A stretch of 64,000 bases of DNA. Origin: Escherichia coli (GTDB lineage: Bacteria > Pseudomonadota > Gammaproteobacteria > Enterobacterales > Enterobacteriaceae). Under the pieces are notes generated by a model that searched no databases, was not told the origin of the DNA, and saw only the letters and a list, made by a program, of their open reading frames with translations. Of this stretch, positions 7,701-53,258 are shown in pieces. The stretch is taken from NCBI RefSeq assembly GCF_003790525.1, contig NZ_CP033635.1. The stretch is one strand, 5' to 3'. Each line of letters starts with the position of its first letter. Positions within the stretch are counted from its first letter, which is position 1. The position numbers were made by a program, and so were the translations under genes.

Positions 7701-9702
7701 CCGCCAGTTCCACCGCCACCGGGTTTAAGTCCACGCCGAAAACGTTGTTGTCGGCAATGTACATTTTCACCCGCTGTAACTCCTGGGTGTAACGATCCTG
7801 CGGAATACGGCGACCTTCCGCCTGCTGCTTGTGGAACAGATACGCTTCCGCCAGCTGGTTGATGGCTTCGTTAAGGAACGCCGCGCTGCCCATCGCCGGT
7901 TCGCACACGGTGAGGTTTAAGATGGCATCAGCTTTAGCGTGCAGATCGGTAATCGGATCAATTTGCTCTTTAAACAGTTCTTTCAGGGCATATTTAACCA
8001 GTGAGCGGGTCAGCACTTCCGGGGTGTAATAAGAGGCAGATTTCTCACGGTCGCGCCCGGCCATACGGTAGATAAAACTGCCTTTGCGGTGAATGCGCAG
8101 ACTGCCGTCTTTCTCGTAGACCTTCTCGTCTTCGTGGTATTTGCCAATCTCATCCTTACTGACGAAGTAACCCGTCTCCAGCTCGTTAAACTCTTCCCCG
8201 GCTTTCTTCACCTCGTAGAGATCTTCGCTGGCGAAGAATCCGCGATAGGAGAGCAGCGCCTCATACACCGCACCCAACTGGTTGATACCCAACTGGCGAT
8301 AAGAAATACGTCCGCGGCGGTTAAAGCGCCCTTTGCCCGGGCGGCTTAACGACATCGCCTGGATAATCTGTTGCAGGGTTTCGTTACGGAATACCACGCG
8401 GTTAAGAATGCGCGTGTTGTTGGCATCAAACAGATGACTTTCCAGACGCGGGACGCTGAACTGATGACTATGGATGGTGATCCGGTCGCCGCTCTCCAGG
8501 TCACTCTGCATTTTCACGCCGCCGTTGTAGCCTTCGCGCACCAGTTTAAACAGCATATTCAGGCTGTCGTGGAAGTAGCGCCCGTTGCGATCTTCTTCGC
8601 TGGTCAGCGGGATCATCTCCAGATCGCGCAACGTTTCCAGGCTGTAACCTTGCAGATAGGTTTTGGCTGTCATTGGCGCATAACCCAGCTCCGGGCGCGC
8701 TTCAATGTAGAACAGGAACAGCAGGCGGTACATGTAACGCAGACATTCGCGGCTCAGTTCATCCGGGTCCACCGCACGGTTACCGGTATAGTTTGCCAGG
8801 CCACGGTCGATCAGATAATGCATCGCTTCGTTGCCCAACAACTCTATGCTTTCGCGCAGGGCATATTTCAGATCTTCCGAAACACCAAACGCATGTTTGT
8901 GCGAATTGTCATCCAGCGAGTCAAGATATGGTGCCCCACTGCCCGGCAGCAGCGAATCTTTATGTAGCAACACTGCCGTCGCTTTCAGCGTATCCGTTTC
9001 ACGACGACTTAAAATCTCTTCAAAATCAAAACGTAGCAGACGGTTTTGCGCCCACTTAGTACGGTCCAACAACAATAGCTGACGGTTACCGAGCAGCAGC
9101 ACAAAACGCGGCGGTTCATTTTGGGTGAAGACCGCCGTAGAGAGCAGATCCTGCCAGCTGCGATATTCACCGTTGGCTTTTTTGCGCAGGCTGTCGCGCT
9201 TATGTTTGTCGGTATCCGCCGGGAATTGCGCGGTCAGTAAGGAGAGCGCCAGCGGATCCAGCGTTCCTTCTTCCTGATCGTGTGCTTCAACAATCCACAG
9301 CCACGGGCTACCGTCAGTGCTGTTGTAACGCGCCAGTACTGGCAGTGGTGTATCGTCATCCAGCATTTGGATCTGCGGCGTAATTTCGTAGCCCAGCGCC
9401 TTTAACAATGGCTGCCAGCGATTACGTTGATCGGCCAGACGCTGCGGGATCTGACGCTGTTTTTCGTGCTCGGCAAGTTTGCGGAAAAACTCAGTCGCCA
9501 GACTGTTAAACTGGTTCCACGGAGCGCGGTATCCCGGCTCTACGTCTTTGCCCTGTTCACGAGCGGCACGCTCCGCTTCACGCGCTGCATTTTCCTGGGC
9601 TATCCAGGGTTCCAGCACATCGCGGATATCACTGGTGAATACCTCACCCAAATAGTGGTTAGAGTAAAATTCGTTTTCGTTATTAATACCGACCAGCGCC
9701 AT
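4780..9702 (-). CDS. drmMI: N6-adenine DNA methyltransferase, PglX/type IIG-like (DrmMI-like)
   Basis: 1640 aa ORF with an AdoMet-binding-like motif (CEPAMGSAAFLNEA), the PglX-type motif GVDLNPVAVELAEVSLWLN and the catalytic motif LGNPPW. Start lies 2 nt after the upstream SNF2 stop, suggesting translational coupling. Confidence 0.7.
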   Translation of the reverse strand: MALVGINNENEFYSNHYLGEVFTSDIRDVLEPWIAQENAAREAERAAREQGKDVEPGYRAPWNQFNSLATEFFRKLAEHEKQRQIPQRLADQRNRWQPLLKALGYEITPQIQMLDDDTPLPVLARYNSTDGSPWLWIVEAHDQEEGTLDPLALSLLTAQFPADTDKHKRDSLRKKANGEYRSWQDLLSTAVFTQNEPPRFVLLLGNRQLLLLDRTKWAQNRLLRFDFEEILSRRETDTLKATAVLLHKDSLLPGSGAPYLDSLDDNSHKHAFGVSEDLKYALRESIELLGNEAMHYLIDRGLANYTGNRAVDPDELSRECLRYMYRLLFLFYIEARPELGYAPMTAKTYLQGYSLETLRDLEMIPLTSEEDRNGRYFHDSLNMLFKLVREGYNGGVKMQSDLESGDRITIHSHQFSVPRLESHLFDANNTRILNRVVFRNETLQQIIQAMSLSRPGKGRFNRRGRISYRQLGINQLGAVYEALLSYRGFFASEDLYEVKKAGEEFNELETGYFVSKDEIGKYHEDEKVYEKDGSLRIHRKGSFIYRMAGRDREKSASYYTPEVLTRSLVKYALKELFKEQIDPITDLHAKADAILNLTVCEPAMGSAAFLNEAINQLAEAYLFHKQQAEGRRIPQDRYTQELQRVKMYIADNNVFGVDLNPVAVELAEVSLWLNAISGDAFVPWFGYQLHCGNSLVGARRQVFNKSELTYKKAKDPSWLNSEPVELAMNTPREETQIFHFLLPDGGMANYSDKTVKQRYPDDFKALDSWRKEFIKSFAGHEIADVQRISEKVEALWNTYRQQLKAERLKTADSYPVWPAENSEQTRSSLSSKDETFSGRLEDNSAYQKLRWVMDYWCALWFWPIDKADELPDRGTWLFEIETLLDGIVITEKVTEVAEHTTGDLFAEEGLLREESSLFSGAGRLKTEVLFRHLPRLAIVDALRKQYRFFHWDLEFCDLFAERGGFDLMLGNPPWLKVVWEERGILGDYKPELVLHNLSAANISSLREESFARVYGLEDAWRSEFESAVGLQNYLNSQQNFSCLLGQKTNLYKCFLPVSWRLISEHGVSGLLHPDGVYDDSKAGELRAKIYCRLRDHYQFQNELGLFPDVHHATTFSINIYGPLQESPSFTHMSNLFSVYTIDSSILHDNQGEIPGIKEESYNGDKLKINWNISPHKSRVLTITIDELRLFAGIFDDNSTPALHARLPALHTVQLLEVLRKFDVKSKKLSSIKNNYYSTVMFDETFAQRDGTTKRKTEFPSGISQWILSGPHFFVGNAYYKTPRTLCKLNSDYDSIDLMTIPDNYMPRVNYIPNCEYSDFLNRIPTVSWDGNVFPVTNGYRFVNREMIGSTSERTFIATIIPPGISHINTCLSTIFKHDYDLLDFFSMSLSIVVDYRVKCTGMGHANQSLVNQLPLLSNEKFRASLHARSMALVSITEHYKKLWCSIYSSEFKIQYWSRDLPQLPQDFFTNLTPEWQRNCALRSDYSRRQALVEIDVLVAQALGLTLEELLAIYRIQFPVMRQYEADTWYDQNGRIIFTPSKGLVGVGLPRTARKADLKNGFVFNVDSPDWTGGDCTDQAIGWDDVKHLQTGTVSVTFDDYTRSDEGERRTVTWQAPFIKPDREDDYKVAWAFFAQDKESA

Positions 9703-9704
9703 GA

Positions 9705-12563
9705 TTAACCCTCCGCTCCGGTGATAACAGCAATTACCTGAATGTAGGGTTCTTTTTCAGTCGTCATGGTGTCCTCAATCCATTCGATATAGCTGTCAAA
9801 ATTGTGTTCGATTTCGCGTTGTCTCTGCTCTTTACGGCTCTGCTTAACTGACAATTGCTGTTTGTTATCGGCAAAATCCAGCTCAAGTTGGCTCAACTGC
9901 CGCCCACGCAAAACGTCCAGCTTTTGCAGATGCTCATTCAGTTGCTGGTTAATGTGCGTTTCAAACGCATTCCGATCATGGATGAATACCTCCCGGGCAT
10001 GAGCAATAGCCGCTTCCAGTAAATCCTGCTGGCGCTGGTGATTACGATCTTTACCGCCGCTGTTAGTCAGCTTGTTACTCAACTGCGGATGACGTTGTAA
10101 AAACTCAGCAAATGGCTGACTGCCGATTAGCGATTCACGGTTAAAGCTCACCACTATCCACGGGTTCACCATCGGATGTGATTTACGGTTCGGGAATAAC
10201 CCGGAAAGAATGAAGTGATCTTCATCGGGTTCAAGCAGGTATGGCAGACGGATAACCGGTGCCTGATGACGACCAAAAGCCGAAGAGATTTTATCGTCCA
10301 GCCACTGCACTACCGGGTTGATTTGCCAGAGATACTGCACATCGGGCCAGGCATGTTGCTCACCGCGAGCGCGTGCAATCGCGTCGGTGATGACGGTTTT
10401 ATCCTGACTTAAATAGAGCTGCCAGTTCTCCGGCGCGATTTCAGGCGGTAGCTGATTGAAGCGGCGGCGTAACTCCTCCGGCGCCACCAGCGACAAGGTA
10501 TTATCAGGCAAGGTTTCATACTGGATAGTTTGACCACTGGCTTTCAGGTAACCCAATGCTCTTTCGCAGTACGCCTGTTCGCTGGCAAACAAGCTGGTGT
10601 CTGTTTCGGTGACCATTGAGGCATCGCTGGAAACCGCACTGCATATTTCGCCAAACAGATCATGTTCGGCGCTTTCCGAGACGTTGCTGTTCAGCAGTTG
10701 ATCAAACAGGCTGGCACCATCATCCTGCATCATGAACTCTGCAACCTGCTCTTCTTCCTCTTCCTGGGTAAATTTGCCGGTAAACTCCGAACTGTCCCCA
10801 ATGTTCTTCTGCGCCTGTTCGTCTTTGTTGATCAACACTTCCAGTACGCGCATATCGCCATTGATCTGCGGTTCGCTGGCCTCGGTAAGCAGATAGCGGA
10901 TTTGAGGCTGATGTTTTTGCCCATAGCGGTCAATACGCCCGTTACGTTGCTGGAATACCATCAACGACCACGGAATATCAAAGTGAATCATTTTGTGGCT
11001 AAGGTGATGCAGGTTGATCCCTTCAGATGCCACATCCGAACAAACCAGAAGACGCAACGGCGACTGCGTTTTACCAAAGGCTTCTACGGTTTCCATCAAC
11101 ACCGTATCGCCCTGATCGCCGCGCAGCGTGGCGATCTGATCATCTTTCAATTTCAGATCCGCTCGCAGTTGCTGTTCGAGGAACTCCAGCGTTTTAATGC
11201 TTTCAGTGAAGATCACCAGGCGATCTTCCGTGTTATTGGCTTTCCAGGCGAGGTCTTTTCGGATGGTGTCGAGCAGCAACTGGTATTTGCTAAACTGGCT
11301 GGCATCAATGTTATTCAGCGCCAACAGCAATGACTCCAGTTCGTTGATCTGGCTCTGGCTATTATGATCTTTACGGCTCTCAAGACGCTTCAGACGATTA
11401 GCCACTACGCTGGCACACGCCATCGGGCTGGAAAATAGCGCTTTTTCGAGGGTTATCTTGAACAGACGACCTTTGTTAGACTGGGCCTGTTCATCGTCAT
11501 CATCACGGAACTGACTCTCAACCAGGCGACGGTATGCTTCTTCTTCGGCACCGGATGCCAGGCGAGTCAGTTTGACAATATTGCGCTCGGGGAACTCGCC
11601 GGACATCTGATCTTTCACGTCTTTTTTGAAGCGACGGACAACCAGATTTTTATCGGCAAAGTCGGCGTATTCATACTCTTTCGGGTTGGCGATCGCCGTC
11701 GGGTCAAGCATGTTCATCAGGCTGGCAAAACTTTCAGCCTTACCATCATGCGGCGTCGCTGAAAGCATAATCAGCGTATCGCTACGCCCGGCGAGCAGTT
11801 TTGCCAGTTTACTGCGTAACGAACTGGTTCCACGTTCTGCGACGTTATGGGCCTCATCAATGACAATAATATCCCACCAGGCATTTTCCAGATGGTGACG
11901 ATATTCAATGTCTTGTTTCAGCGTATCGATGGAGATAATGGTCTTGTCAAAATAGTGAAACGGGTTGTGGTTGGTAGGGATGCGGTTACGCACCTTTTGT
12001 AAACCAGCAGAATCCAGGCGGGTCAATGGGATCGCAAAACGGCTCCAGAACTCCTTCTGGAATTGTGTCAGCATCGATTTAACCGCCAGAACCAGAATAC
12101 GTTTTCCGCGCCCACGACGGATCAGCTCCGAAACCAGAATACCGGCTTCCAGCGTTTTACCCAGACCGACAGCGTCGGCAATGAGTATCCGCTGGCGCGG
12201 CTGTGCCAGAGCCATCCGCGTAGGGTCGAGCTGAAACGGCATGGAATCCATCGCCGCCAGATGACCAAAATGGACTTTACTGTCTGTCGGTACGCGTTGG
12301 CGTAACTGACTTTCGATATACAACTGCGCCGCCTGATAATTGGCGGATTCATCTTCCACCAAATGCGTTTTTGCGGGATCCAGGATCTCTACTTTTTGTT
12401 CCAGTTTGGTCAGAAATAACCCTTCTTTACCGCGCACAAGCTCTGAAATACCATCGCAGGTCAGCAAATACCCACCATCACCACTGTCATCCGCCCGGCG
12501 AATACGCCATTCGGCATCACGAATAACCACCCGCATACCAGGTGCATAATTTTGCTTATTCAT
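9705..12563 (-). CDS. drmD: SNF2-family helicase (DrmD-like)
   Basis: 952 aa ORF with motif I ADAVGLGKT, motif II IIVIDEAHN and the C-terminal helicase motif QRNGRIDRYGQ. First gene of a three-gene minus-strand operon. Confidence 0.65.
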   Translation of the reverse strand: MNKQNYAPGMRVVIRDAEWRIRRADDSGDGGYLLTCDGISELVRGKEGLFLTKLEQKVEILDPAKTHLVEDESANYQAAQLYIESQLRQRVPTDSKVHFGHLAAMDSMPFQLDPTRMALAQPRQRILIADAVGLGKTLEAGILVSELIRRGRGKRILVLAVKSMLTQFQKEFWSRFAIPLTRLDSAGLQKVRNRIPTNHNPFHYFDKTIISIDTLKQDIEYRHHLENAWWDIIVIDEAHNVAERGTSSLRSKLAKLLAGRSDTLIMLSATPHDGKAESFASLMNMLDPTAIANPKEYEYADFADKNLVVRRFKKDVKDQMSGEFPERNIVKLTRLASGAEEEAYRRLVESQFRDDDDEQAQSNKGRLFKITLEKALFSSPMACASVVANRLKRLESRKDHNSQSQINELESLLLALNNIDASQFSKYQLLLDTIRKDLAWKANNTEDRLVIFTESIKTLEFLEQQLRADLKLKDDQIATLRGDQGDTVLMETVEAFGKTQSPLRLLVCSDVASEGINLHHLSHKMIHFDIPWSLMVFQQRNGRIDRYGQKHQPQIRYLLTEASEPQINGDMRVLEVLINKDEQAQKNIGDSSEFTGKFTQEEEEEQVAEFMMQDDGASLFDQLLNSNVSESAEHDLFGEICSAVSSDASMVTETDTSLFASEQAYCERALGYLKASGQTIQYETLPDNTLSLVAPEELRRRFNQLPPEIAPENWQLYLSQDKTVITDAIARARGEQHAWPDVQYLWQINPVVQWLDDKISSAFGRHQAPVIRLPYLLEPDEDHFILSGLFPNRKSHPMVNPWIVVSFNRESLIGSQPFAEFLQRHPQLSNKLTNSGGKDRNHQRQQDLLEAAIAHAREVFIHDRNAFETHINQQLNEHLQKLDVLRGRQLSQLELDFADNKQQLSVKQSRKEQRQREIEHNFDSYIEWIEDTMTTEKEPYIQVIAVITGAEG

Positions 12564-39054: not shown

Positions 39055-39229
39055 AACATTCTCCCTCTGAGACGGAAGCCACTATAGTACTCGCCCGCCA
39101 ATTAAGCAAAGAAACTTTGCTTAATTTTTATTTATAGCAATGTTATTTGTTTTGATGTCATTCGCCTTCTATACTCAGTCGGTATATCAAACCGCAATTG
39201 ATTAACCTGCAAATAAGAATAAAACTGAT

Positions 39230-40123: not shown

Positions 40124-40269
40124 ACATTCTGTTTACTAATAATTTATAGCCATTCACTGTTCCTGCATCATAGATATGGTGCAGCAACATTAAACACCAG
40201 CCATCTAAAAATTATGATTTATTAATTTCTGATTCAGTTAAATTCCTCTGAAAATAGATCCGTTATAGT

Positions 40270-40530
40270 TCCATGCATCTTTTGAAATCCCGACCAAATA
40301 ATGGGGTCGGCAAACATCTATTTGAGACGTTGGTTCTCATCCTCAAGATCTTTGATTATTTTAATATCAGAAGATTCCATACCACCGTATCTGGACTTCC
40401 AGTTGTAGTAAGTGGCTCAGAGAAGCCTGCCTCCCGGCAGACATCTTTAACAGTTCGCCCGTATTCAAGCGATTTAATCACGGCGATAATCTGATGCTCA
40501 GTAAAAGGGGCTTTACGCATAGCGATCTCC
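40270..40530 (-). pseudogene. IS3-family transposase OrfA remnant (frameshifted and truncated)
   Basis: Minus-strand translation MRKAPFTEHQIIAVIKSLEYGRTVKDVCREAGFSE..., then a frame break, then ...DIKIIKDLEDENQRLK*. Only about 260 bp of the element remains. Confidence 0.5.
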
Positions 40531-40594
40531 TTCATTGGCAGATTGATTATGCCGGAGGATCTCTAAATGTTAATGGCACGATTATGCGGGATAT

Positions 40595-41500
40595 TTACAA
40601 TACCAGTCCAACCCTCAGCTTACTGCAATGCCCATCAAGAGGGATGGTCCACATTGACGTATCAAAATCGCTCTCTGACCAGCGAGCAAAACGCAGCTCA
40701 CTGGATCGAATAAAGATAAGCAGAGTGAGTTCTGTCGCCCAGCGGGTTAGCGGCCTGCCGGTATAGCTGTCTATTTTCTCAAGTAACTCAGGGATGCGCT
40801 TTAACTCCAGCGCCGGACGATGCTGTCGATTACTGGAAGCAACCGCCCCCGCCATCTCCTGCGCCGGATTGTAATGAATTAACCCGCTTTGCACTGCATA
40901 ACGCATGATGGCCGTGGTGCGCTGTTGAAGGCGGGAAGCCACTTCAAAACGTCCAGATTTCTCCACGGCTTTAATGGGAATTAACAGATCGCGGGTGCCC
41001 AGTTCAGCAATATTGCGAGCACCAATTGTTGGGAAGATATTGTCCTCCAGGCTCTTTTTTCCACGATTAGCATGATCTTCCGACCATTTTTGGTTTGTCA
41101 CGAGCCACTCTCTGGCAACCTTCTCGAAAGTAATAATCTCTTTCGCCTGCTCTTCTTTCACAGCACGTTTATGCTCACGAGGATCGATACCAGCAGCGAC
41201 CAGCTTTCTGGCCTCTTCCCTTTTCTTCCGCGCATCCGCCAGCGAAACATCCGGGTAAACGCCGAACGCCATCAAATGTTGTTTACCACCAAAACGGAAA
41301 CGAAATCACCAATACTTTGAACCGCCAGGTTTTACAAGTAAAGACATGCCGTCGCCGTCAACAAGTGAATACTCTTTCTCCTCTGACTTCACAGAACGAA
41401 CTTTAGTATCCGTTAGGGCAATAATGGTCTTCCTTCCATTGGTATCTCGTGAGTATACAAGCAATATCGAATCGGCAAATATACTCATAAGTATACTCAC
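40595..41500 (-). pseudogene. P4-type tyrosine integrase, decayed (frameshifted, catalytic C-terminus missing)
   Basis: Two ORF fragments: 41306-41500 (...LTDTKVRSVKSEEKEYSLVDGDGMSLLVKPGGSKYW) and 40595-41275 (...GVYPDVSLADARKKREEARKLVAAGIDP...RFARWSE...). Both resemble the N-terminal two-thirds of the intact integrase at 51562-52815. Confidence 0.6.
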
Positions 41501-41622
41501 AAGCCTGTTGATGTGGGTTGAGTCAGGTTGACTTCAGTTGAGAAGAAAAGCTGGAAAAGCCTTGCGTGGCGCGGATTTCAGGCATAAAAAAAGACCTCAG
41601 TTGAGGTCTATTTACATACTTT

Positions 41623-41645
41623 TGGTGCGAAGGCCGGACTCAAAC
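41623..41645. repeat. Degenerate copy of the leuX 3' end (att remnant / tandem-island junction)
   Basis: tggtgcgaaggccggactcaaac matches the leuX 3' end tggtgccgaaggccggactcgaac at 52979-53002 except for one deletion and one substitution. Confidence 0.6.
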
Positions 41646-41847
41646 ATCAAAATAAGTTAATGATAAAAAACAAATAATAAAACACAACAATGAAATATGC
41701 CCCCTTTTGTGCCCCCACTGTTTTTCTGACCAATCTATTTTCAGCCCATCAATAAATCGGAAAGTTAAATCATTTTTAATCAGTAAGTTTGGATCCGTAG
41801 CTCGGCTCCAAACCAGTGCATCTTTTATCCACATAAAAAATTTTTTT

Positions 41848-42135
41848 TCGAAAGAACTGTTCACACTGTTCACCTTTCTGTTTTCTCCTTTTATTTCATA
41901 GTGATAGGTGGTGAATAATGGGTGAAGGGTGAACATTCGATTCTTCACCTCCGGCATTCTGCCGGTGTGACTTGTGCAGGGGATTAATTTCCCGTGCTGA
42001 AATCACACCGGAAGAAAAAAGTTTTTTTTGATTTGATTGTTCACACTGTTCACCTTTCGTTTTTCTCTTTTAATTTCAGTGTGATAACGGGTGAATATAC
42101 GGTGAAGGGTGAACAGTGGATTGTTCACCTTCGGG
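41848..42135. repeat. P4 crr-like cis-replication region: two roughly 110-bp direct repeats carrying TGTTCACC iterons
   Basis: Near-identical units at about 41848-41950 and 42020-42135 separated by about 70 bp. Each contains TGTTCAC(A/C)CTGTTCACC and inverted GGTGAA copies. Confidence 0.6.
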
Positions 42136-42146
42136 GAATTCAGGGA

Positions 42147-42172
42147 TAAAAAAAGACCGGCAGATGCCGGTC
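42147..42172 (-). terminator. Intrinsic terminator downstream of the alpha gene
   Basis: GACCGGCA..TGCCGGTC hairpin followed on the minus strand by a T7 run, a few nt after the alpha stop. Confidence 0.55.
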
Positions 42173-42179
42173 AGGTGGG

Positions 42180-44513
42180 TCAGGCTGTTGCAGGGTCGTC
42201 ACATTTTGGCAGCCAGTCGCCGTAGCTTTCCTCTTTCAGCGTCAGGTTGGTCTGTATCCCCTGTTTGGTATGGCGCTTCTCGTAATTCAGTCCGTATTCC
42301 TTCAGCATCACCGGCAGCCCCAGCCCGAACATTTTCAGACTGAGTACATTCCGGTAGCCGTTTGCCTCCATGTAGGCCAGATAGGCGTGATAGAGGTATT
42401 TACGGTAATTGCGCGGGATGATACTGGCGTTCCCCATATACATGCCGCTGGTCTGCGGCAGGGTTTCCAGATAGCCGATAAAATCAAACGTCGGGTCGGC
42501 ATCCCGTTTGATGTTCAGTGCCTCGTCTGAGTTCTGCTGGGACTGAAGCAGTGACCGGGCGAGCATCGGGTCGCTGAACTTCTGCATCAGGTGACGCACG
42601 ATGACCGCCAGCTCGCGGGTGATTTTGTCCTTAAGCTGCGGGTCGCGCTCCTGCGGGGCTATCTGTTCCGGGAAGTGAATAATCACCCGCCGGCGTGACA
42701 CGCCGCCGCTGCGGTCGGTGAAGCGCATCGGGTTATTGTTCACGGCCAGAATTACCGCCGGGATATGCGTGGAGTATGCATCCCGGTATTTCGGGTCAAC
42801 GGACACCGCATCGCCGCCGGTGATGGCCTTGAGTCCGGCACCGTCGCCGCTCCATTTTTCCTGGTCCGGCAGGCGTATCAGTGAGAAGCCAGTTAACGCG
42901 GCACGTTCACGCGGGGATTCCAGCGTCTCGATGGTGGCCGACGTGGCGTTATCCTCCCCGGCCAGCAGGGTGGCTATTTCGGCCATGATACTTTTGCCGC
43001 TGCCGCCGGGACCGGTCACCTCCAGAAAGAGCTGCCAGTCGTAGCGGTTTGCCAGCACCATAAACAGTGCGGCCAGAATCACGTCGCGTTTTTCCGCACG
43101 GCCACCGGCGGCACGGTCAAGCCAGCACCAGAACGCGGGGGCGTGGGTCTCCAGCGTTTCACCGTCCACCGGCGGGGTGAAATCCACATCGCACAGGGTG
43201 CGCATCCAGTGTGACGGACTGTGCGGGTGGAACGTGCCGTTCTGCGTGTCGAGCACGCCGTTACGAAAGCCAATCAGGCGGCGGGAGGGGGCTTCCTGCT
43301 GCGGAATAATCAGCTTCAGGGTGTCCACCACGGAGGCCACCTTCCCGGAGGAGAACGGCGCGCGCAGACGCTGAAACAGCCCGGCCACATCCCGGGCAAA
43401 GTCCTGTGGTGGCAGCACCTTCCAGACACCATTTTCATAACGGGACAGAAGCTGGCCGTTGGCATCGACCGCGAGCGCCTCGCCGTAATGCTCATAGATA
43501 CGCATGGCCTTTTCGCTGGTACTCATGGCGGAAAACTCCGCTTCACTCATGGTGTCGAACGGGCTTTCAGCCGGTGGCCGGATGGCATCGTAAATGGCCT
43601 TACGGGTGGCCTCCCCGCCGTACTGCGTGAAGGCATCATTCCAGTCACCGAAGACCGGTGGCAGGGCAACAACACCTTCACACGCATCTGCGGCTGCGGC
43701 GGCTTTTTTCTGGCCATCACCGCTGAGGTCACGGTCAGCGGCAAGGACAATCTGACAGGCGGGGTGCTTCTGCCGGGCAAGGCTGGCCAGAGAAAGGAGG
43801 TTCACGGAAGAAAGCGCCACCATCACCGTTTCACCGGTCAGGTGATGCACGGTAAGTGCGGTCGCGTATCCCTCCGCTATCCACAGACGTTTTCCGGCCT
43901 GATTCTGTCCTTCAAGGATGTGACAGGTGCCCCTGACCTGTCCGCCTTTCAGGGTGCGCTTACGGCCGTCAGCACTGATTAACTGAAGGTTAACCAGTTC
44001 GCCGCTGTCGTCATACAGTGGCACCACAAGGTCACCGGCGCGCCAGCTCACGCCACCGGCTCTGTGTGTGCCGGTCAGCATCCGGCATTCCCGGCCGGGA
44101 AAGCCCTTGCGGGTCAGGTAGGCGTTACCGGTTCCGGGACGGGTTTTCGCCATCAGGGTTTGTGCCAGTGCGGCGGCGTTCTTCCGGGCAGCGTCTGTTT
44201 CAGCACCGGCGGCAGCCGTCACTGCCGGGTCAGCCGGGGGCAGGCTGCCGGTCACGGCAGCCACCTTTGTGGCCGCGTCGGACGGGGAGACACCAAACAC
44301 CTTTTCAACCAGTTTCAGGCCGTCACCGGCACCACACTGATTGCAGTACCAGGTGCCGCGCCCCTCCCTGTCATCAAAACGGAAGCGGTCACTCCCGCCA
44401 CAGACCGGACAGGGCTGATGACGGTTCTTCAGCACCTGAATCCCCAGCGCCGGGAGAATACGCGGCCAGTGGCCGAGCGCATGGCTGACGGTGGCGGTTA
44501 CGTTCATTTTCAT
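42180..44513 (-). CDS. alpha: P4 alpha-like primase-helicase
   Basis: 777 aa ORF with an N-terminal zinc-binding primase motif (CPVCGGSDRF...YCNQCGAGDG), next to the TGTTCACC iteron clusters. Confidence 0.8.
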   Translation of the reverse strand: MKMNVTATVSHALGHWPRILPALGIQVLKNRHQPCPVCGGSDRFRFDDREGRGTWYCNQCGAGDGLKLVEKVFGVSPSDAATKVAAVTGSLPPADPAVTAAAGAETDAARKNAAALAQTLMAKTRPGTGNAYLTRKGFPGRECRMLTGTHRAGGVSWRAGDLVVPLYDDSGELVNLQLISADGRKRTLKGGQVRGTCHILEGQNQAGKRLWIAEGYATALTVHHLTGETVMVALSSVNLLSLASLARQKHPACQIVLAADRDLSGDGQKKAAAAADACEGVVALPPVFGDWNDAFTQYGGEATRKAIYDAIRPPAESPFDTMSEAEFSAMSTSEKAMRIYEHYGEALAVDANGQLLSRYENGVWKVLPPQDFARDVAGLFQRLRAPFSSGKVASVVDTLKLIIPQQEAPSRRLIGFRNGVLDTQNGTFHPHSPSHWMRTLCDVDFTPPVDGETLETHAPAFWCWLDRAAGGRAEKRDVILAALFMVLANRYDWQLFLEVTGPGGSGKSIMAEIATLLAGEDNATSATIETLESPRERAALTGFSLIRLPDQEKWSGDGAGLKAITGGDAVSVDPKYRDAYSTHIPAVILAVNNNPMRFTDRSGGVSRRRVIIHFPEQIAPQERDPQLKDKITRELAVIVRHLMQKFSDPMLARSLLQSQQNSDEALNIKRDADPTFDFIGYLETLPQTSGMYMGNASIIPRNYRKYLYHAYLAYMEANGYRNVLSLKMFGLGLPVMLKEYGLNYEKRHTKQGIQTNLTLKEESYGDWLPKCDDPATA

Positions 44514-44527
44514 GGTGTTGTTCTCCT

Positions 44528-44848
44528 TCAGTGCAGTACCGGCGCTTTTATGTGACGGGCACAGAGTTCATCCATCACAACCAGCCCGAGAAAGGACAGC
44601 GACGGCGCGGCCTTCAGGGGGCCGGATTCCATTAAATCTTCCAGCAGGGCACAGGCTATCTGACGCCCTTTTTCCTCACCGTGCTGGCGCAGATAAAAGC
44701 CTTCCAGCTCAGCGGCGATGGCCGCCTCCAGTGACTCAAGGGTGAGATGCGGGTAGCGGTGCTGACGTTCGCACACGGTCAGCCAGGCACAGGCGACAGC
44801 GCGACGGTAAAGGGCAGCGCGTAAGACGGGCGGTAAGGGTGTTTTCAT
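44528..44848 (-). CDS. Small P4-type protein (orf106/Cnr-like), function uncertain
   Basis: 106 aa ORF immediately upstream of alpha in the same operon. Confidence 0.45.
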
Positions 44849-44983
44849 TTGTTTTCCTCCCTGTGACAGATGACTGCATTCCGTGCCGGTTGCATTAACT
44901 GATAAGGCATATCTGCGTCTCCTGAAGACGTGCGTATCCCTGCGCGAATACGCACATTTAATTTTTCGGGTGTCGTTTTTTAA

Positions 44984-45439
44984 TTACAGATAATTGCGGT
45001 AACTGTTATCCGGGGTGATTTCCGGGTCAGGCTCCGTGCGGGGAATTTCCCGCCATTCCCGCGCCACCGGTGCCGCCCGGCTGACCGGAACAGTGTCCTG
45101 CGGGTAAATATCCAGATATTTCTCCCGCCATTTCTGTAATTCCGGGTCTCCGGCCATTTCTTTCAGTACCGCATGCCGGTTTACGGGGCTGCGTTTGAAC
45201 AGGTCAGGACGGTCACAGGTAAATTCCCGCAGAAAACGCCCCAGCGGGATGTCTGTGGTGCGCCCGTCGGCGAGGATACGCACAAGGATACTGAATTTAC
45301 GGCGGTACGGGTTCCAGACAATGTCCGGGCAGCGGTACGGCATTTCCCACGGAATACCGTCTTCCAGAATGCCGACCACGGCCACATCGGGAAAACCGGC
45401 AGAACGGTAAATCTCACCGGGCTGGGGAAAATCAAACAT
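44984..45439 (-). CDS. P4 orf151-like protein
   Basis: 151 aa ORF in the epsilon-alpha operon position. Confidence 0.45.
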   Translation of the reverse strand: MFDFPQPGEIYRSAGFPDVAVVGILEDGIPWEMPYRCPDIVWNPYRRKFSILVRILADGRTTDIPLGRFLREFTCDRPDLFKRSPVNRHAVLKEMAGDPELQKWREKYLDIYPQDTVPVSRAAPVAREWREIPRTEPDPEITPDNSYRNYL

Positions 45440-45719
45440 GCGTCCTGTCTCCCCGGTCTTTCTGCTGGGCGAGAAAATCGCGGCACAGGCCTTTGGCTTT
45501 CAGCTCATTCAGCACAAAATCAATATCTTCATTCAGGTAGCTGAAAATATGCGGAATGTAGAGCTGATGCAGGCCGGAGAGTTCACGGTGAATCAAATCA
45601 CCCCCAACAAACTGGGATACGGCGCTGGCGCGGTTGAGCTTATGGTAAGCCTCAATGCTGAGGTGTTCACGGGCGTCATGACGCGCTGAGACGGTCTGAG
45701 GGGCTTTTTTATTACGCAC
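45432..45719 (-). CDS. P4 epsilon-like small protein (putative GTG start)
   Basis: 95-codon frame beginning at a GTG at 45719..45717 ([20 protein letters not shown]...). The longer track ORF 45432-45959 has an implausible N-terminal extension. Confidence 0.35.
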
Positions 45720-46298
45720 GGGACACCTCCACCACCGGCAGACGGGCAGCAAGGGAGAGCACATAGTCACGGACAAGGGAACGGCGGGCGCTGCGTTCAT
45801 CACCGGCGACGGTGCGAAGCATGCAGATACGGGGATGACGGTCTGCGCGACGGACAGCCGCAAACACAAAGACAAATTCAGGGTGTGAGGGGGTAAGGGT
45901 TGTAGCCATAAGGCAGCCTCCTTCGAGTAGCAAATAACTGCTATCGCCGGAGTTCTCACGCTCGATGGCGATAGCCCAGACGGGGGTGAGAATACCGGCC
46001 TCGAAGAATACCGGCCAGCCCGGAGGCTGCCCCGCCTGAGCTACCATTGACTCAGTGGCATAACATGCGATTGCGAACAGGATAATACCTGCACGGCAAA
46101 CCACACGCCACACCATAATCTGGCGCTCTGTGGCGTTGATTGCGACACAAAAAAAGACGCATGGCGCGTCATATGTCGCCTTCGAGTTACACGGGTTCTC
46201 ACGCCCGGCTGCCGATTTTGCGGCAACGGAAAGACTATATCCGCAAATGCCGGAAAAAGGCAAGCCAGAAAAAGGGAGTTTTTGCAGAGCGGGCATCA

Positions 46299-46565
46299 TC
46301 ATGCGTCATACCCCCGTTTGCGTCCGGCAATGCGGCCGGCCATCCATGCGGTGACTTCAGAGTGCAGCCAGGCCACATTTTTACCGCCAAGACTCACCTG
46401 CGGCGGAAATTCCCCCTTACGGATGAGTTCGTAGATGGTCGAGCGTGACAGGCCGCACAGGTGCATCACTTCCGGAAGACGCAAAAAACGCTCCTGTGTG
46501 ATGTCCGGCTGCGGCATCAGTGGCGTCACAGGGGCGGGAGACGGGGAAGAAAAAACAGCTTGCAT
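46299..46565 (-). CDS. vis: Vis/AlpA-family small DNA-binding regulator
   Basis: 88 aa ORF with an AlpA-type HTH ([26 protein letters not shown]), at the head of the leftward operon. Confidence 0.6.
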
Positions 46566-46844
46566 CGGGCTACCTCGTTAATGTCCATACAGCACCGGAT
46601 AAGTCTGTCCGGCTTCGGGTAGCGCTTTATTTTGTGAATATTTTCAGCAGACGCAACAGGGGGGATTTGTTCCGGCAGCCTTACAATGCTTGTGTGTTTT
46701 TTGTTCATCTCCACTTAAAGTCATTTAAAGCCACTTAAAGCAATTCGTAATTTTTATAGTGAAATACAAATCGTTTTTTCTTATTCATTCCCGGCGAATT
46801 AATAAAAACAAACAGTAGTAAACAGCACAAAAAGCCCATCAACG

Positions 46845-46948
46845 GGTGAACAGTGGTGAACAGACGGTGAACAGTCATTACTGCGATTGTTCACCCTTTA
46901 ACTTACTGTATTACTTATCTTTTTTCTTATGGCGAACAGAGGTGAACA
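46845..46948. repeat. ori-like iteron cluster (GGTGAACAG repeats)
   Basis: Three tandem GGTGAACAG copies at 46845-46874 with 1-2 bp spacers, an inverted TGTTCACC at 46888-46895, and further copies at 46932-46948. Confidence 0.5.
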
Positions 46949-47117
46949 GTAAAATATAAAAAAACAAACAGTAAGACGGTTTTTCCTGCGACCTTTTCCT
47001 GGCTTGCCGGTGTGAGGATGAGTCTCCTGTGTCAGGGCTGGCACATCTGCAATGCGTCGTGTTGTTGTCCGGTGTACGTCACAATTTTCTTAACCTGAAG
47101 TGACGAGGAGCCGGAAA

Positions 47118-47852
47118 ATGTCTGACAACACCATCCCTGAATATCTGCAACCCGCGCTGGCACAACTGGAAAAGGCCAGAGCCGCCCATCTTGAGAACGC
47201 CCGCCTGATGGATGAGACCGTCACGGCCATTGAACGGGCAGAGCAGGAAAAAAATGCGCTGGCGCAGGCCGACGGAAACGACGCTGACGACTGGCGCACG
47301 GCCTTTCGTGCAGCCGGTGGTGTCCTGAGCGACGAGCTGAAACAGCGCCACATTGAGCGCGTGGCACGCCGGGAGCTGGTACAGGAATATGACAATCTGG
47401 CCGTGGTGCTGAATTTTGAACGCGAACGCCTGAAAGGGGCGTGTGACAGCACGGCCACCGCCTACCGGAAGGCACATCATCACCTGCTGAGTCTGTATGC
47501 AGAGCATGAGCTGGAACACGCCCTGAATGAAACCTGTGAGGCGCTTGTCCGGGCAATGCATCTGAGCATTCTGGTACAGGAAAATCCGCTCGCCAACACC
47601 ACCGGGCATCAGGGCTACGTCGCACCCGATAAAGCTGTCATGCAGCAGGTGAAATCATCGCTGGAACAGAAAATAAAACAGATGCAAATCAGCCTCACCG
47701 GCGAGCCGGTTCTCCGGCTGACCGGACTGTCAGCGGCAACACTCCCGCACATGGATTATGAGGTGGCAGGCACACCGGCACAGCGCAAGGTGTGGCAGGA
47801 CAAAATAGACCAGCAGGGAGCAGTGCTTAAGGCCAGAGGACTGCTGTCATGA
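47118..47852 (+). CDS. sid: P4 Sid-like capsid size determination protein
   Basis: 244 aa from the internal ATG (MSDNTIPEYLQPALAQLEKARAAHLENARLMDE...). Stop overlaps the delta start (ATGA). Confidence 0.75.
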   Translation: MSDNTIPEYLQPALAQLEKARAAHLENARLMDETVTAIERAEQEKNALAQADGNDADDWRTAFRAAGGVLSDELKQRHIERVARRELVQEYDNLAVVLNFERERLKGACDSTATAYRKAHHHLLSLYAEHELEHALNETCEALVRAMHLSILVQENPLANTTGHQGYVAPDKAVMQQVKSSLEQKIKQMQISLTGEPVLRLTGLSAATLPHMDYEVAGTPAQRKVWQDKIDQQGAVLKARGLLS

Positions 47853-48349
47853 TTTACTGCCCGTCGTGTGGACATGTTGCTCACACCCGTCGCGCACATT
47901 TCATGGACGATGGCACCAAGATAATGATTGCACAGTGCCGGAATATTTATTGCTCTGCGACATTTGAAGCGAGTGAAAGCTTTTTCTCTGACAGTAAAGA
48001 TTCAGGAATGGAATACATTTCAGGCAAACAGAGATACCGCGATTCACTGACGTCAGCCTCCGGCAGTATGAAACGCCCGAAAAGAATGCTTGTTACCGGA
48101 TATTGTTGTCGGAGATGTAAAGGCCTTGCACTGTCAAGAACATCGCGGCGTCTGTCTCAGGAAGTCACCGAGCGTTTTTATGTGTGCACGGATCCGGGCT
48201 GTGGTCTGGTGTTTAAAACGCTTCAGACCATCAACCGCTTCATTGTCCGCCCGGTCACACCGGACGAACTGGCAGAAAGCCTGCATGAAAAACAGGAACT
48301 GCCGCCAGTACGGTTAAAAACACAATCATATTCGCTGCGTCTGGAATGA
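47849..48349 (+). CDS. delta: P4 Delta-like late-gene activator (tandem Ogr-type zinc fingers)
   Basis: 166 aa ORF with two zinc-finger modules (MIYCPSCGHVAH...CRNIYC and CCRRCKGLAL...CTDPGC). Confidence 0.8.
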   Translation: MIYCPSCGHVAHTRRAHFMDDGTKIMIAQCRNIYCSATFEASESFFSDSKDSGMEYISGKQRYRDSLTSASGSMKRPKRMLVTGYCCRRCKGLALSRTSRRLSQEVTERFYVCTDPGCGLVFKTLQTINRFIVRPVTPDELAESLHEKQELPPVRLKTQSYSLRLE

Positions 48350-48422
48350 GGGCTGCCGGTTAACACCGGCCGTCGCCGCACACCGTATTTTTATTCTTCA
48401 GCATGATGAGAAAGAGATAACG

Positions 48423-48995
48423 ATGGAAAGCACAGCCTTACAGCAGGCCTTTGACACCTGCCAGAATAACAAAGCAGCATGGCTGCAACGCAAAAATGAG
48501 CTGGCTGCGGCCGAACAGGAATATCTGCGGCTTCAGTCCGGGGAAGGCAGAAACGTCAGTCGCCTTGACGAATTACGCAATATTATCGAAGTCAGAAAAT
48601 GGCAGGTGAATCAGGCCGCCGGTCGTTATATTCGTTCGCATGAAGCCGTTCAGCACATCAGCATCCGCGACCGGCTGAATGATTTTATGCAGCAGCACGG
48701 CACAGCACTGGCGGCGGCACTGGCACCGGAGCTGATGGGCTACAGTGAGCTGACGGCCATTGCCCGAAACTGTGCCATACAGCGTGCCACAGATGCCCTG
48801 CGTGAAGCCCTTCTGTCCTGGCTTGCGAAGGGTGAAAAAATTAATTATTCCGCACAGGATAGCGACATTTTAACGACCATCGGATTCAGGCCTGACGTGG
48901 CTTCGGTGGATGACAGCCGTGAAAAATTCACCCCTGCGCAGAACATGATTTTTTCGCGTAAAAGTGCGCAACTGGCATCACGTCAGTCTGTGTAA
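48423..48995 (+). CDS. psu: P4 Psu-like polarity suppression protein
   Basis: 190 aa ORF, third gene of the sid-delta-psu late operon. Confidence 0.75.
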   Translation: MESTALQQAFDTCQNNKAAWLQRKNELAAAEQEYLRLQSGEGRNVSRLDELRNIIEVRKWQVNQAAGRYIRSHEAVQHISIRDRLNDFMQQHGTALAAALAPELMGYSELTAIARNCAIQRATDALREALLSWLAKGEKINYSAQDSDILTTIGFRPDVASVDDSREKFTPAQNMIFSRKSAQLASRQSV

Positions 48996-49368
48996 AATTC
49001 CCCGAAAATCCGCCCGTTTTTACTGAAAAAAGCCATGCATCGATAAGGTGCATGGCTTTGCATGCGTTTCCCTGCCTCATTTTCTGCAAACCGCGCCATT
49101 CCCGGCGCGGTCTGAGCGTGTCAGTGAAACTGCATTAAAACCGCCCCGCAAAGCGGGCGGGCGAGGCGGGGAAAGCACTGCGCGCATGATATAAAAGAGT
49201 ATTAAGAATTTTACAGAAACAGCTAATACAGACGCTGAAGTAAAATCATTGAGACCATTCGTGATTTGATGCAAAAAATTGCACAACATAAGCTCCTATG
49301 GTTCATAGTAATACTATTAAACCTATCTTTTCGTTGGTATATTACCCATTTTGTAATGGAGAATTGAA

Positions 49369-51501
49369 ATGCTTTCTACTCAGGATATAAACGGTTTTTT
49401 TAATGCTGTTGACTCTCTCAAAAGGTTTAAACGAGCAGAAATAAGGGACAACAAAGATAAACCACTTATTGATTCACTTTACACAGATCTATTGCCAAAC
49501 AATCACGTCTTCAAAATGTGCTACGGGGAAAACACTACATTTTTAATTGGAAGAAAAGGCACAGGAAAATCCACAATAATTCTTAAACTTGAAAGTGAGT
49601 ACAGAAAAGAATCTTCATACCTCCCATGCTATATAGATACAAAAACAGTATTCGAAAGTGTTAGAGGTGAGTATCAAAAAATAGACTACCTAAAAGGGAA
49701 GATACCTGAAGAGCATCTAGAAAAATATTTAGTCGAGCGTGCATTCATTAAAAACATCTTGAAATCAATCGGTGACGAATTGAATATTCGAGCAGAAAGC
49801 ATATTCTCAAAACTAGCAGGGATTGTTAATGCAAGCAAAAAACAAGCGGTAAAAGCAAAAATAACAAAACTACTTTTAATGGTGGACAATAACCAAATAA
49901 TAAAAGAAATTGAAATACCCGTAATAACAGAAGTAAATACTAAACTTACTAAGGCGAACGAATCAGAAAATGGAACTACCCAAAACTATAACTCTGAGCT
50001 AACTGTAAAAATCGGAACATCACAACATGAAGGTGGTGGAAAAATAGGAGCGGTAAAAGGAATCACCTCAAGACAGAAAAACAATGACGCTTGGGAAAAG
50101 AGTTTCTCTACAGCCCTTCTAAAGGTTTTTCAAATCACATCAGTAATTGAAGAAATTAAAATCATATTAAGAGAGCTAGGAGTAAAAAAGCTTGTAATAT
50201 TTTTAGACGATTTCTCTGAAGTTGAAGAGAAGACGCTAAAAAACTTCGTCGATGTTGTACTTGCTCCGCTAAATAACTGGGCTAATGATTTCATTTGTTT
50301 TAAAGTCGCTGCCTACCCAAGTCGCATATATTATGGCGACATTGATGTTGGCAAAATAGATGTGGTAAATTTAGATTTTTATAATTTATATTCTAATTAT
50401 GATAAATCTACGATGGAATCCTTATCAGCTGACTTCACCAAGAGACTTTTAAATCAAAGGCTTAATCAGTTTTGCACATTGAAGTTTGAAGATTATTTTG
50501 ATACATCTTCAGCTACTCCAGAAGAGTACTATGATCTTATATTTAAAGTATCCATGAATGTCCCTAGAATTATAGGATACATTCTTTATTACTGCCATCA
50601 AACCAATGTATCTCTTGGCAGAAAAATAAATAAAGGCTCAATCGAGAAAGCAGCTCAGACTTATTATGAGCAAGTTGTATCTAAGTTTTTCGATATTGCC
50701 ACGCATAGTCTGATGTCTTTCAGTGAAAAAGTTTCTGAACTTCAGCAAAAAGAGATTCTAAATCTCTTCGTTCAGAAATTAAAAACGATTAAGCGACAAA
50801 TAATAACAAATGAACTAACTGGCACAATTTACAATAGAGACAGAACAAATCCTTATTGTAGTCATTTTTATTTTCAACCTAATCTTGAACATTTTCTGCG
50901 TACATTGGAGCTTAATTTCTTCATTACCAAATATAATGAATTAGTAAATAAAGACGGAAACAAGGTCTCGATATATGGAATAAATTATGGATTAGCTCGA
51001 AGTGAAAACCTCAAATGGGGAAAACCTGAAGGTAATCAGTTCCGTAGTTATTTCGTAGAAAGACCATTTGATTTCAACAAAGATATCGAAGATTTCTTAA
51101 GAGAATCGAAAAAAATCGTATGTCTTAATAGCTCTTGTGATAAAACCTATCCATATGAAGAACTTGCATTTCTTGAATATAATAAAATGAGATGTATTGA
51201 ATGCCAGTCGCCTGTTGAAGTAAGATCGTTTTCTGAAAGTATCAGTTCTGAAATATCTAAAATTGACAACGCTAAACTTTTACCAAAATTAGAATTAATG
51301 ATATTACATGAACTGAATAAGGCAGACGATCATCTCCTAGCTCGAGACATTGCTGAGGAACTAGACGCTTCATCACAATTAATTGCCAAACGGGCTGAAA
51401 AATTAGACAGAAAAGGTCTTGTTTTTAGAGATAAAAGTGATGCATTAATTAAGTATTCAATAACAAATAAAGCAGTAGAAGGTTATTTCTATGATGACTA
51501 A
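49369..51501 (+). CDS. Uncharacterised P-loop NTPase with C-terminal zinc ribbon and winged-helix-like domain; candidate anti-phage defence gene in the P4 psu-int hotspot
   Basis: 710 aa ORF, conspicuously AT-rich compared with flanking P4-like genes. Walker A LIGRKGTGKST, Walker B-like LVIFLDDFSEVEE, Cys4 cluster CLNSSCDKTYPYEELAFLEYNKMRCIECQSP, and a C-terminal wHTH-like segment. Confidence 0.6.
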   Translation: MLSTQDINGFFNAVDSLKRFKRAEIRDNKDKPLIDSLYTDLLPNNHVFKMCYGENTTFLIGRKGTGKSTIILKLESEYRKESSYLPCYIDTKTVFESVRGEYQKIDYLKGKIPEEHLEKYLVERAFIKNILKSIGDELNIRAESIFSKLAGIVNASKKQAVKAKITKLLLMVDNNQIIKEIEIPVITEVNTKLTKANESENGTTQNYNSELTVKIGTSQHEGGGKIGAVKGITSRQKNNDAWEKSFSTALLKVFQITSVIEEIKIILRELGVKKLVIFLDDFSEVEEKTLKNFVDVVLAPLNNWANDFICFKVAAYPSRIYYGDIDVGKIDVVNLDFYNLYSNYDKSTMESLSADFTKRLLNQRLNQFCTLKFEDYFDTSSATPEEYYDLIFKVSMNVPRIIGYILYYCHQTNVSLGRKINKGSIEKAAQTYYEQVVSKFFDIATHSLMSFSEKVSELQQKEILNLFVQKLKTIKRQIITNELTGTIYNRDRTNPYCSHFYFQPNLEHFLRTLELNFFITKYNELVNKDGNKVSIYGINYGLARSENLKWGKPEGNQFRSYFVERPFDFNKDIEDFLRESKKIVCLNSSCDKTYPYEELAFLEYNKMRCIECQSPVEVRSFSESISSEISKIDNAKLLPKLELMILHELNKADDHLLARDIAEELDASSQLIAKRAEKLDRKGLVFRDKSDALIKYSITNKAVEGYFYDD

Positions 51502-51561
51502 ATAGAAACTAACAATGAAAAGCTCAACGCTGATTCTAGGGCGTTGAGCTACTTAATAATT

Positions 51562-52815
51562 TTAGATCCTAGCAAAATCATAGGCCGTAATATTTTGATA
51601 TCGATTAATATCTAGATAGTCAGCCCACCATTGCATCATCAAACGACGCTCTTCTAAATGCTCTGAAGTATGAATATAAGCTGCGCGTACATTGTTACGT
51701 TCTGAATGGCTCAATTGACGTTCTATCGCATCATCACTCCATAGTCCCGATTCCCCCAACGCCCCGCGTGCCATAGTCCTAAAACCATGGCCACATACTT
51801 CTGTTTTTGTGTCATATCCCATTACACGCAATGCATTGTTTACCGTATTTTCACTCATAACCTTAGTTGCGTCATGATCGCCCGGGAAAAGAAAGTCTCT
51901 ATCACCACTAATCTGCTTAAGCTGTTCTAACAATATAATCGCCTGTCGGCTAAGCGGAACTATATGCTCCTCTTTCATTTTCATGCCACGATACGAGTAA
52001 CGTACGCCTTTAATTTCTTCTCGTTTAGCAGGAATACGCCAAGTAGCGTTATCAAAATCAAATTCTTTCCAACGAGCAAAACGTAATTCACTTGAACGAA
52101 CAAAAGTTAGTAAAGAAAGCTCAACCGCAATTTTCGTCATCATACGCCCACGATATACATCAAGACGTGCCAAGAACTCATGGAAACGATGTGATGGTAG
52201 CGCCGGGTAGTGCCGCGTTTTCGCCGTAGATAACGCACCGGCCATATCAATTGCAGGATTTGAGTCTACATAATCGTTCTGAACAGCATAGCGCATAATA
52301 GCAGTGACACGTTGCTGAAGACGCTGCGCTACATCATGCTTACCACTGGCATCAACTTTTTTTATCGGTGCCAAAAGGTGACTAGTTTTAAGCTGTCGAA
52401 TATCAGACGAGCCAATATAGGGAAAGATATAAAGCTCTAGATAGCGAAGAACCCGTGCCCGATGTTCCTCACTCCAACGCTTATTGCTGGCATGCCATTC
52501 ACGAGCAATAGTTTCAAAATTATAAGCACCAGCATTAACTGCTTGGGCCTCTTTCTGTACTGCTTTTGGATCTATACCTTGCACCAGCAACTTTTTGGCT
52601 TCATCCCTTCTAGCTCTAGCTTCAGCAAGCGTCACAGTCGGCCAAACACCAAAAGCAAGACGATCCTCTTTTTTGTCGGAAGGTCGTCTATATTTCATAC
52701 GCCAATATTTAGAGCCTTTGACAGAAACCTCGAGGTACAAACCGCCACCATCGGCCATTTTATAGGTTTTATCTTTTGGCTTTGCGGTCTCGACCTGTCT
52801 GGCGTTGAGCTTCAT
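51562..52815 (-). CDS. int: P4-type tyrosine integrase (IntB-like), intact
   Basis: MKLNARQVETAKPKDKTYKMADGGGLYLEV... with a complete C-terminal catalytic region (...HGFRTMARGAL..., ...HSERNNVRAAYIHT). Begins about 165 bp from the leuX 3' end, in the same orientation. Confidence 0.85.
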   Translation of the reverse strand: MKLNARQVETAKPKDKTYKMADGGGLYLEVSVKGSKYWRMKYRRPSDKKEDRLAFGVWPTVTLAEARARRDEAKKLLVQGIDPKAVQKEAQAVNAGAYNFETIAREWHASNKRWSEEHRARVLRYLELYIFPYIGSSDIRQLKTSHLLAPIKKVDASGKHDVAQRLQQRVTAIMRYAVQNDYVDSNPAIDMAGALSTAKTRHYPALPSHRFHEFLARLDVYRGRMMTKIAVELSLLTFVRSSELRFARWKEFDFDNATWRIPAKREEIKGVRYSYRGMKMKEEHIVPLSRQAIILLEQLKQISGDRDFLFPGDHDATKVMSENTVNNALRVMGYDTKTEVCGHGFRTMARGALGESGLWSDDAIERQLSHSERNNVRAAYIHTSEHLEERRLMMQWWADYLDINRYQNITAYDFARI

Positions 52816-52978
52816 TTGGGGGCACATCCCTAATCGAAGTTAAGATGCCCCCAATTATGCCCCCAATGACATCCGGATTTCAACGTACAACCTCGGACGA
52901 CTCGGGACGTTAAAATCACTGCAAGCATTGATTTTTAAGGAATTATTGGACTTTCTCGGATGGTCTAGGAAGTGCTTA

Positions 52979-53063
52979 TGGTGCCGAAGGCCGGACTCGA
53001 ACCGGCACGTATTTCTACGGTTGATTTTGAATCAACTGCGTCTACCGATTTCGCCACTTCGGC
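52979..53063 (-). tRNA. leuX: tRNA-Leu (anticodon CAA), leuX
   Basis: Reverse complement reads GCCGAAGTGGCGAAATCGGTAGACGCAGTTGATTCAAAATCAACCGTAGAAATACGTGCCGGTTCGAGTCCGGCCTTCGGCACCA, an 85-nt class II tRNA with CAA anticodon and encoded CCA. Confidence 0.9.
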
Positions 53064-53258
53064 ACTGAAGAGGTATGCGGAAAACGTTGTGGATTATACC
53101 TGTCGCACGCCACCATGCAAGCGCCAGCTTGCTCGCATCTCGCTAAGTGCTGAAATTTTCAGCATTACACTCAGCGATGTGTAACCTTTGTCACACTCCA
53201 GGCACCCCGCCCTGCCATGCTCTACACTTCCCAGACAACACCAGAGAAGGACCAAAAA

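Follow-up and report, generated by a model that had tools for sequence, protein, structure and literature searches.

A 64-kb stretch of Escherichia coli DNA, referred to here as the window, carries a cluster of short repeats at positions 46845-46948, and the question that this locus raises is whether the repeats form a replication origin and, if so, to which replicon the origin belongs. A reading of the letters without database searches (the sequence-only reading) had proposed that the cluster is the replication origin of a satellite, by analogy with phage P4.

Repeat structure of the cluster

The plus strand of the cluster begins with three tandem copies of GGTGAACAG (46845-46853, 46855-46863, and 46866-46874), separated by gaps of 1 and 2 bp. 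These are followed by an inverted TGTTCACC at 46888-46895, by one degenerate copy, GGCGAACAG, at 46931-46939, and by another exact GGTGAACAG at 46941-46949. The sequence-only reading had described three tandem copies with 1- to 2-bp spacers, an inverted copy, and further degenerate copies. The tandem and inverted copies are borne out by these positions, while the description as degenerate applies to the copy at 46931-46939 and not to the one at 46941-46949, which is exact. Successive iterons start 10, 11, 22, 43, and 10 bp apart, a spacing that places the tandem copies on one face of the helix. Two short minus-strand open reading frames (46735-46878 and 46898-47044) overlap the cluster; they have no annotation in P4 and were not taken as genes.

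The octamer GGTGAACA/TGTTCACC is found 12 times without mismatch in the window, compared with 1.91 occurrences expected from 100 dinucleotide-preserving shuffles, the largest of which gave 5 and none of which (0/100) reached 12. Ten of the 12 exact octamers lie in two clusters, 5 of them in the 104 bp at 46845-46948 and the other 5 in the crr region at 41867-42129, and a search that allowed one mismatch recovered the sixth ori copy (46931) together with further copies in crr. As the motif is short, one could suspect words that arose by chance in AT-rich intergenic DNA. Besides the excess over the shuffles, the Poisson chance of at least five exact octamers within 104 bp is about 2e-15, and conservation of the copies extends to about 80 loci (see below), so that we give this explanation no credence. 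The parts of the origin and the associated replication genes are listed in Table 1.

TABLE 1 Parts of the P4-type origin, crr, and neighboring genes in the window
Feature	Position	Strand	Remarks
ori type I iteron 1	46845..46852	-	GGTGAACA on plus strand, TGTTCACC on minus strand; P4 9310-9317; exact in 75/80 P4-like sequences
ori type I iteron 2	46855..46862	-	Exact octamer; P4 9320-9327; starts 10 bp past start of iteron 1
ori type I iteron 3	46866..46873	-	Exact octamer; P4 9331-9338; starts 11 bp past start of iteron 2; exact in 79/80
ori type I iteron 4, inverted	46888..46895	+	TGTTCACC on plus strand; P4 9353-9360; exact in 73/80
AT-rich spacer, 35 bp, 80% A+T	46896..46930		From iteron 4 to distal pair; putative DNA-unwinding element
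ori type I iteron 5, variant GGCGAACA	46931..46938	-	T>C relative to P4 9396-9403, which reads GGTGAACA
ori type I iteron 6	46941..46948	-	Exact octamer; P4 9406-9413; least conserved copy, exact in 42/80
Three 10-bp "ori type 2 repeats," CCACTTAAAG-like	46711..46740	+	Identical to P4 9176-9205; vis side of iterons
Equivalent of P4 "origin of DNA replication" feature (<9086..9809)	46621..47344		X51522 annotation carried over; 97.8% alignment
TGT-N12-ACA dyad	46668..46685		Motif search; putative Delta/Ogr activator site, late promoter PLL
TGT-N12-ACA dyad	47028..47045		Motif search; putative activator site of Psid
crr (cis replication region)	41835..42134		Two 120-bp direct repeats (41835-41954, 42015-42134) with type I iterons; downstream of alpha
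alpha, primase-helicase initiator (DnaG-type primase, SF3 helicase, C-terminal winged-helix origin-binding domain)	42180..44513	-	769/777 identical to P4 alpha
cnr (ORF106), upstream of alpha	44528..44848	-	106/106 identical to P4 ORF106
vis (ORF88), left neighbor of ori	46299..46565	-	86/88 identical to P4 ORF88
sid, right neighbor of ori	47118..47852	+	241/244 identical to P4 Sid

Correspondence with the origin of phage P4

A blastn search of 46300-47400 against phage records retrieved phage P4 (X51522, NC_001609) with 97.8% identity across all 1101 bases, and the match spans the P4 feature "origin of DNA replication" together with its "ori type 1 repeats" (six) and "ori type 2 repeats" (three). 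In the ungapped alignment, the six iterons of the window coincide exactly with the six type 1 repeat features of P4 (X51522 9310-9413). Five are exact octamers and one has a single mismatch, and the P4 arrangement of three direct, one inverted, and two direct copies is matched. The order, orientation, and spacing of the type I octamers are those of P4, as is the location between vis and sid, which the sequence-only reading had also recognized and which the nearly identical flanking genes confirm (Table 1).

The same reading had proposed alignment to P4 ori1 as a check. Across 46690-46990, 294/301 positions are identical. Of the seven differences, four lie outside the iteron cluster and three within it, two of these in the AT-rich spacer and one (T>C) in iteron 5, which leaves the cluster itself 101/104 identical to P4, with a single iteron affected. 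As the alignment is to an annotated P4 ori, it establishes orthology, which is stronger than the analogy from which the origin had first been proposed, and the proposal gains further support from the crr, alpha, and Cnr counterparts described below. The segment at 46845-46948 is almost certainly the ori (ori1) of a P4-type satellite prophage, judging from its sequence; the name ori1 distinguishes the site from an internal ori2 within alpha. A P4 ori in a P4-like prophage is already known and ordinary, and nothing in this identification is new.

The position of the cluster also allows a different reading, in which the repeats are not an origin and serve instead as transcription factor operators for the divergent late promoters PLL (of vis) and Psid. 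The vis-sid intergenic region is indeed divergent, and the cluster lies between two TGT-N12-ACA dyads of a kind typical of P2 and P4 late promoters, putatively belonging to PLL (46668-46685) and Psid (47028-47045). However, these activator-type dyads are separate from the iterons, the octamer recurs ten times in crr (by the P4 annotation), downstream of alpha and without a promoter, and in the P4 record this stretch bears the annotation of the mapped origin. We therefore regard a purely operator function as highly improbable. Alpha binding at the iterons may still have a secondary regulatory role next to that of an origin. Because the array sits between two divergent Delta-activated late promoters, one can imagine it as a regulatory switch, in which occupancy by alpha would couple replication to vis and sid transcription and the T>C change in iteron 5 would retune this coupling or the copy number in this lineage; nothing in our data supports this idea and we consider it very unlikely.

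Conservation among P4-like elements

Searching IMG/VR with alpha yielded 80 P4-like loci, in which the identity of alpha is 99-100% for about half and about 85% for the other half (at least 84% in all). Two octamer clusters are present at matching relative positions in nearly all 80 loci, and the ori pattern of two copies, one inverted copy, and three copies is shared by about 80 P4-like loci, among them the ones whose alpha has about 85% identity. The TGTTCAC core is common to all 80; the divergent members retain the core CTGTTCAC, and changes fall mostly on the last base. At copies 1 to 5, the octamer is exact in 73-79 of the 80 sequences, but at copy 6 in only 42.

The preference for the iterons is also evident when conservation is measured by column. 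When 73 distinct P4-like ori sequences were aligned, the mean majority fraction of the 48 iteron columns was 0.983, versus 0.814 for the 143 neighboring non-iteron columns and 0.739 for all non-iteron columns. Unlike the type I iterons, the type 2 repeats, which are identical between the window and P4, have a column majority fraction of only about 50% across these 73 sequences, and this low conservation suggests that they may be dispensable or lineage specific. From the inverted copy to the distal pair, 71 of the 73 sequences have a spacer of 35 bp, and its A+T content is 74-89%. In the window, this 35-bp spacer holds the 30-mer with the lowest duplex stability in the vis-sid intergenic region, at the 99th percentile of the prophage.

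Within this set of 80 ori sequences, the variant iteron GGCGAACA (T>C at position 46933, in iteron 5) is found in the window only. Variant iterons as such are carried by natural P4-like elements, for example TGTTCACT or GGTGAATA. The T>C change must also occur in E. coli Ec42, because the 301-bp ori segment of this strain matches at 100%.

Replication genes and the second iteron cluster

The sequence-only reading had noted crr-like repeats about 4.8 kb from the cluster, and the measured distance to crr is 4.7-5.0 kb. Compared with P4 crr (4291-4590), the 120-bp units match except for one substitution and all iterons are identical, most of the other differences being located in the 60-bp linker. 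Over residues 671-770, alpha matches PDB 1KA8, the structure of the winged-helix domain with which P4 alpha binds the origin, at 100% identity, so its DNA-binding specificity should be unchanged. P4 replication needs both ori and crr in cis, and Cnr is a negative regulator of this replication. By sequence comparison, the P4-like element in the window thus has every known cis and trans part of the P4 replication system.

From these parts, we can predict how replication would start, along the lines of the textbook model. The C-terminal winged-helix domain of alpha would recognize the TGTTCACC octamers, which in ori lie about one helical turn apart, as well as the further octamers in crr, downstream of alpha. 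Iteron-bound alpha would then melt the adjoining AT-rich DNA. The 35-bp spacer is the probable melting site, as suggested by its composition, its stability, and its fixed length. The SF3 helicase domain of alpha would unwind the DNA and the DnaG-type primase domain would prime it, and an initiator that is its own helicase and primase would allow replication to start without a host initiator. Cnr would limit this alpha-driven replication. We infer that the ori copy in the window is active in alpha-dependent replication. For P4, three papers (PMC4234260; PMC4889955; PMC2777425) describe alpha as binding the origin repeats through its winged-helix domain and then unwinding and priming. The first two of these (PMC4234260, PMC4889955) cite Ziegelin and Lanka (1995) and Yeo et al. 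(2002) for the action of alpha at the origin.

The general design of this origin has parallels in other replicons, among them both plasmids and satellites. The iteron plasmid origins (pSC101, F, P1, R6K) combine repeated initiator sites with an AT-rich segment and use winged-helix Rep initiators, and the ori of the window resembles them in having direct repeats about one helical turn apart beside an easily melted AT-rich segment. Unlike in iteron plasmids, the P4 initiator carries its own primase and helicase activities and requires in cis a further iteron cluster, crr, that lies several kilobases away; P4 replication is also not known to depend on DnaA, DnaB, or DnaG. A similar logic is found in the rep-ori of SaPIs and PICIs, where an initiator-helicase encoded by the satellite reads iterons that flank an AT-rich stretch on the same element. 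Their proteins and iterons are not known to be related to those of P4, no crr-like second site is known for them, and the origin is usually immediately beside rep.

The P4-like prophage in leuX

The origin is part of a larger P4-like element. The P4 segment bounded by the attP core and the right cos end (4078-11624) is collinear with 41623-49159 of the window at 97.9% identity, and the 19-nucleotide P4 cohesive end is present without change at 49160-49178. At the other side, P4 int aligns at 83% (DNA) to 51576-53002, and the attP core is exact at 52979-52998, inside the tRNA-Leu(CAA) gene on the minus strand (52979-53063). Taken together, the P4 alignment, the cos site, and the att cores delimit a P4-like prophage of about 11.4 kb (41623-52998) integrated in leuX. 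Besides this location, the element differs from phage P4 in its int and in another cargo gene that replaces gop-beta-cII; P4 1-2675 (gop, beta, cII) has no counterpart in the window alignment.

In the immunity region, Rfam models matched the C4 antisense RNA (P4 CI immunity RNA family) at 45964-46051 on the minus strand with 74 bits, and isrK (67 bits) together with the c4-a1b1 target element upstream, at 46150-46240 on the same strand. These matches indicate that the RNA-based immunity system of P4 is present.

Some of these features could be taken to mean that the cluster is a relic, descended from the P4 ori but no longer active, in a prophage that is decaying and immobilized. The substitution in iteron 5 falls in the conserved core and is unique among the 80 P4-like sequences, int has diverged, and the gop-beta-cII region has been replaced. 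In addition, the 20-bp P4 att core has lost 1 nucleotide in its attL copy (41623-41641; TGGTGC-GAAGGCCGGACTC), whereas the attR copy in leuX is exact. This deletion might impair excision, in which case the element could be heading toward immobilization. Neither the iteron 5 change nor the attL deletion speaks against assigning the cluster to the P4 ori. Against decay, however, the element retains intact alpha, cnr, vis, sid, crr, and cos, each with 98-100% identity to P4, and five of the six iterons are unchanged from P4. Variant iterons such as TGTTCACT and GGTGAATA are tolerated in natural P4-like elements, and replacement of gop-beta-cII is normal at what is a known variable defense hotspot of P4-like satellites (PMC8628076). 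A relic is therefore unlikely, and a functional P4-type origin remains our preferred interpretation.

The place of gop-beta-cII, in the gap between cos and int, is filled in the window by an ORF of 710 amino acids (49369-51501, plus strand). Its only matches are a weak one to P-loop ATPases (NCBIfam Sll1717 family; E value of 2e-9, below the cutoff) and one to a MarR-like winged helix at the C terminus (Pfam; E value of 1.8e-4). PADLOC gave no system match beyond the winged helix-turn-helix, and the ORF is absent from the 80 IMG/VR P4-like loci. RefSeq names the copy in the matching region of Ec42 a "MarR family transcriptional regulator." We consider this cargo ORF a candidate for an uncharacterized anti-phage gene.

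Distribution in E. coli genomes

Of 5426 complete E. coli genomes, 1006 contain a match to the 301-bp ori segment, always on the chromosome, and almost half of E. coli genomes are reported to have P4-like elements (PMC8628076). In RefSeq, no annotated feature lies under the 301-bp ori match, including in the strain that is identical here. The main value of the present identification is therefore correct annotation, as it establishes which replicon the P4-like satellite in the window uses, and the full set of replication parts is useful for judging the mobility of the satellite and its uncharacterized cargo gene.

E. coli Ec42 shares the prophage at 99.6% identity and is collinear with the window from 41573 onward, while positions 1-41572 are not collinear, and coverage of 37000-53100 does not exceed 85% in any complete E. 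coli genome of the collection. The break in Ec42 upstream of attL and the absence of any genome above 85% coverage indicate that the leuX neighborhood is mosaic between strains. Just outside attL, the window also contains a truncated P4-type integrase ORF of 226 amino acids (40595-41275, minus strand) with a partial NCBIfam PRK09692 domain (E value of 4e-35) and, at 40844-40933, weak similarity to P4 int at the DNA level. This ORF is probably the remnant of an earlier leuX island that was displaced by the insertion of the P4-like element.
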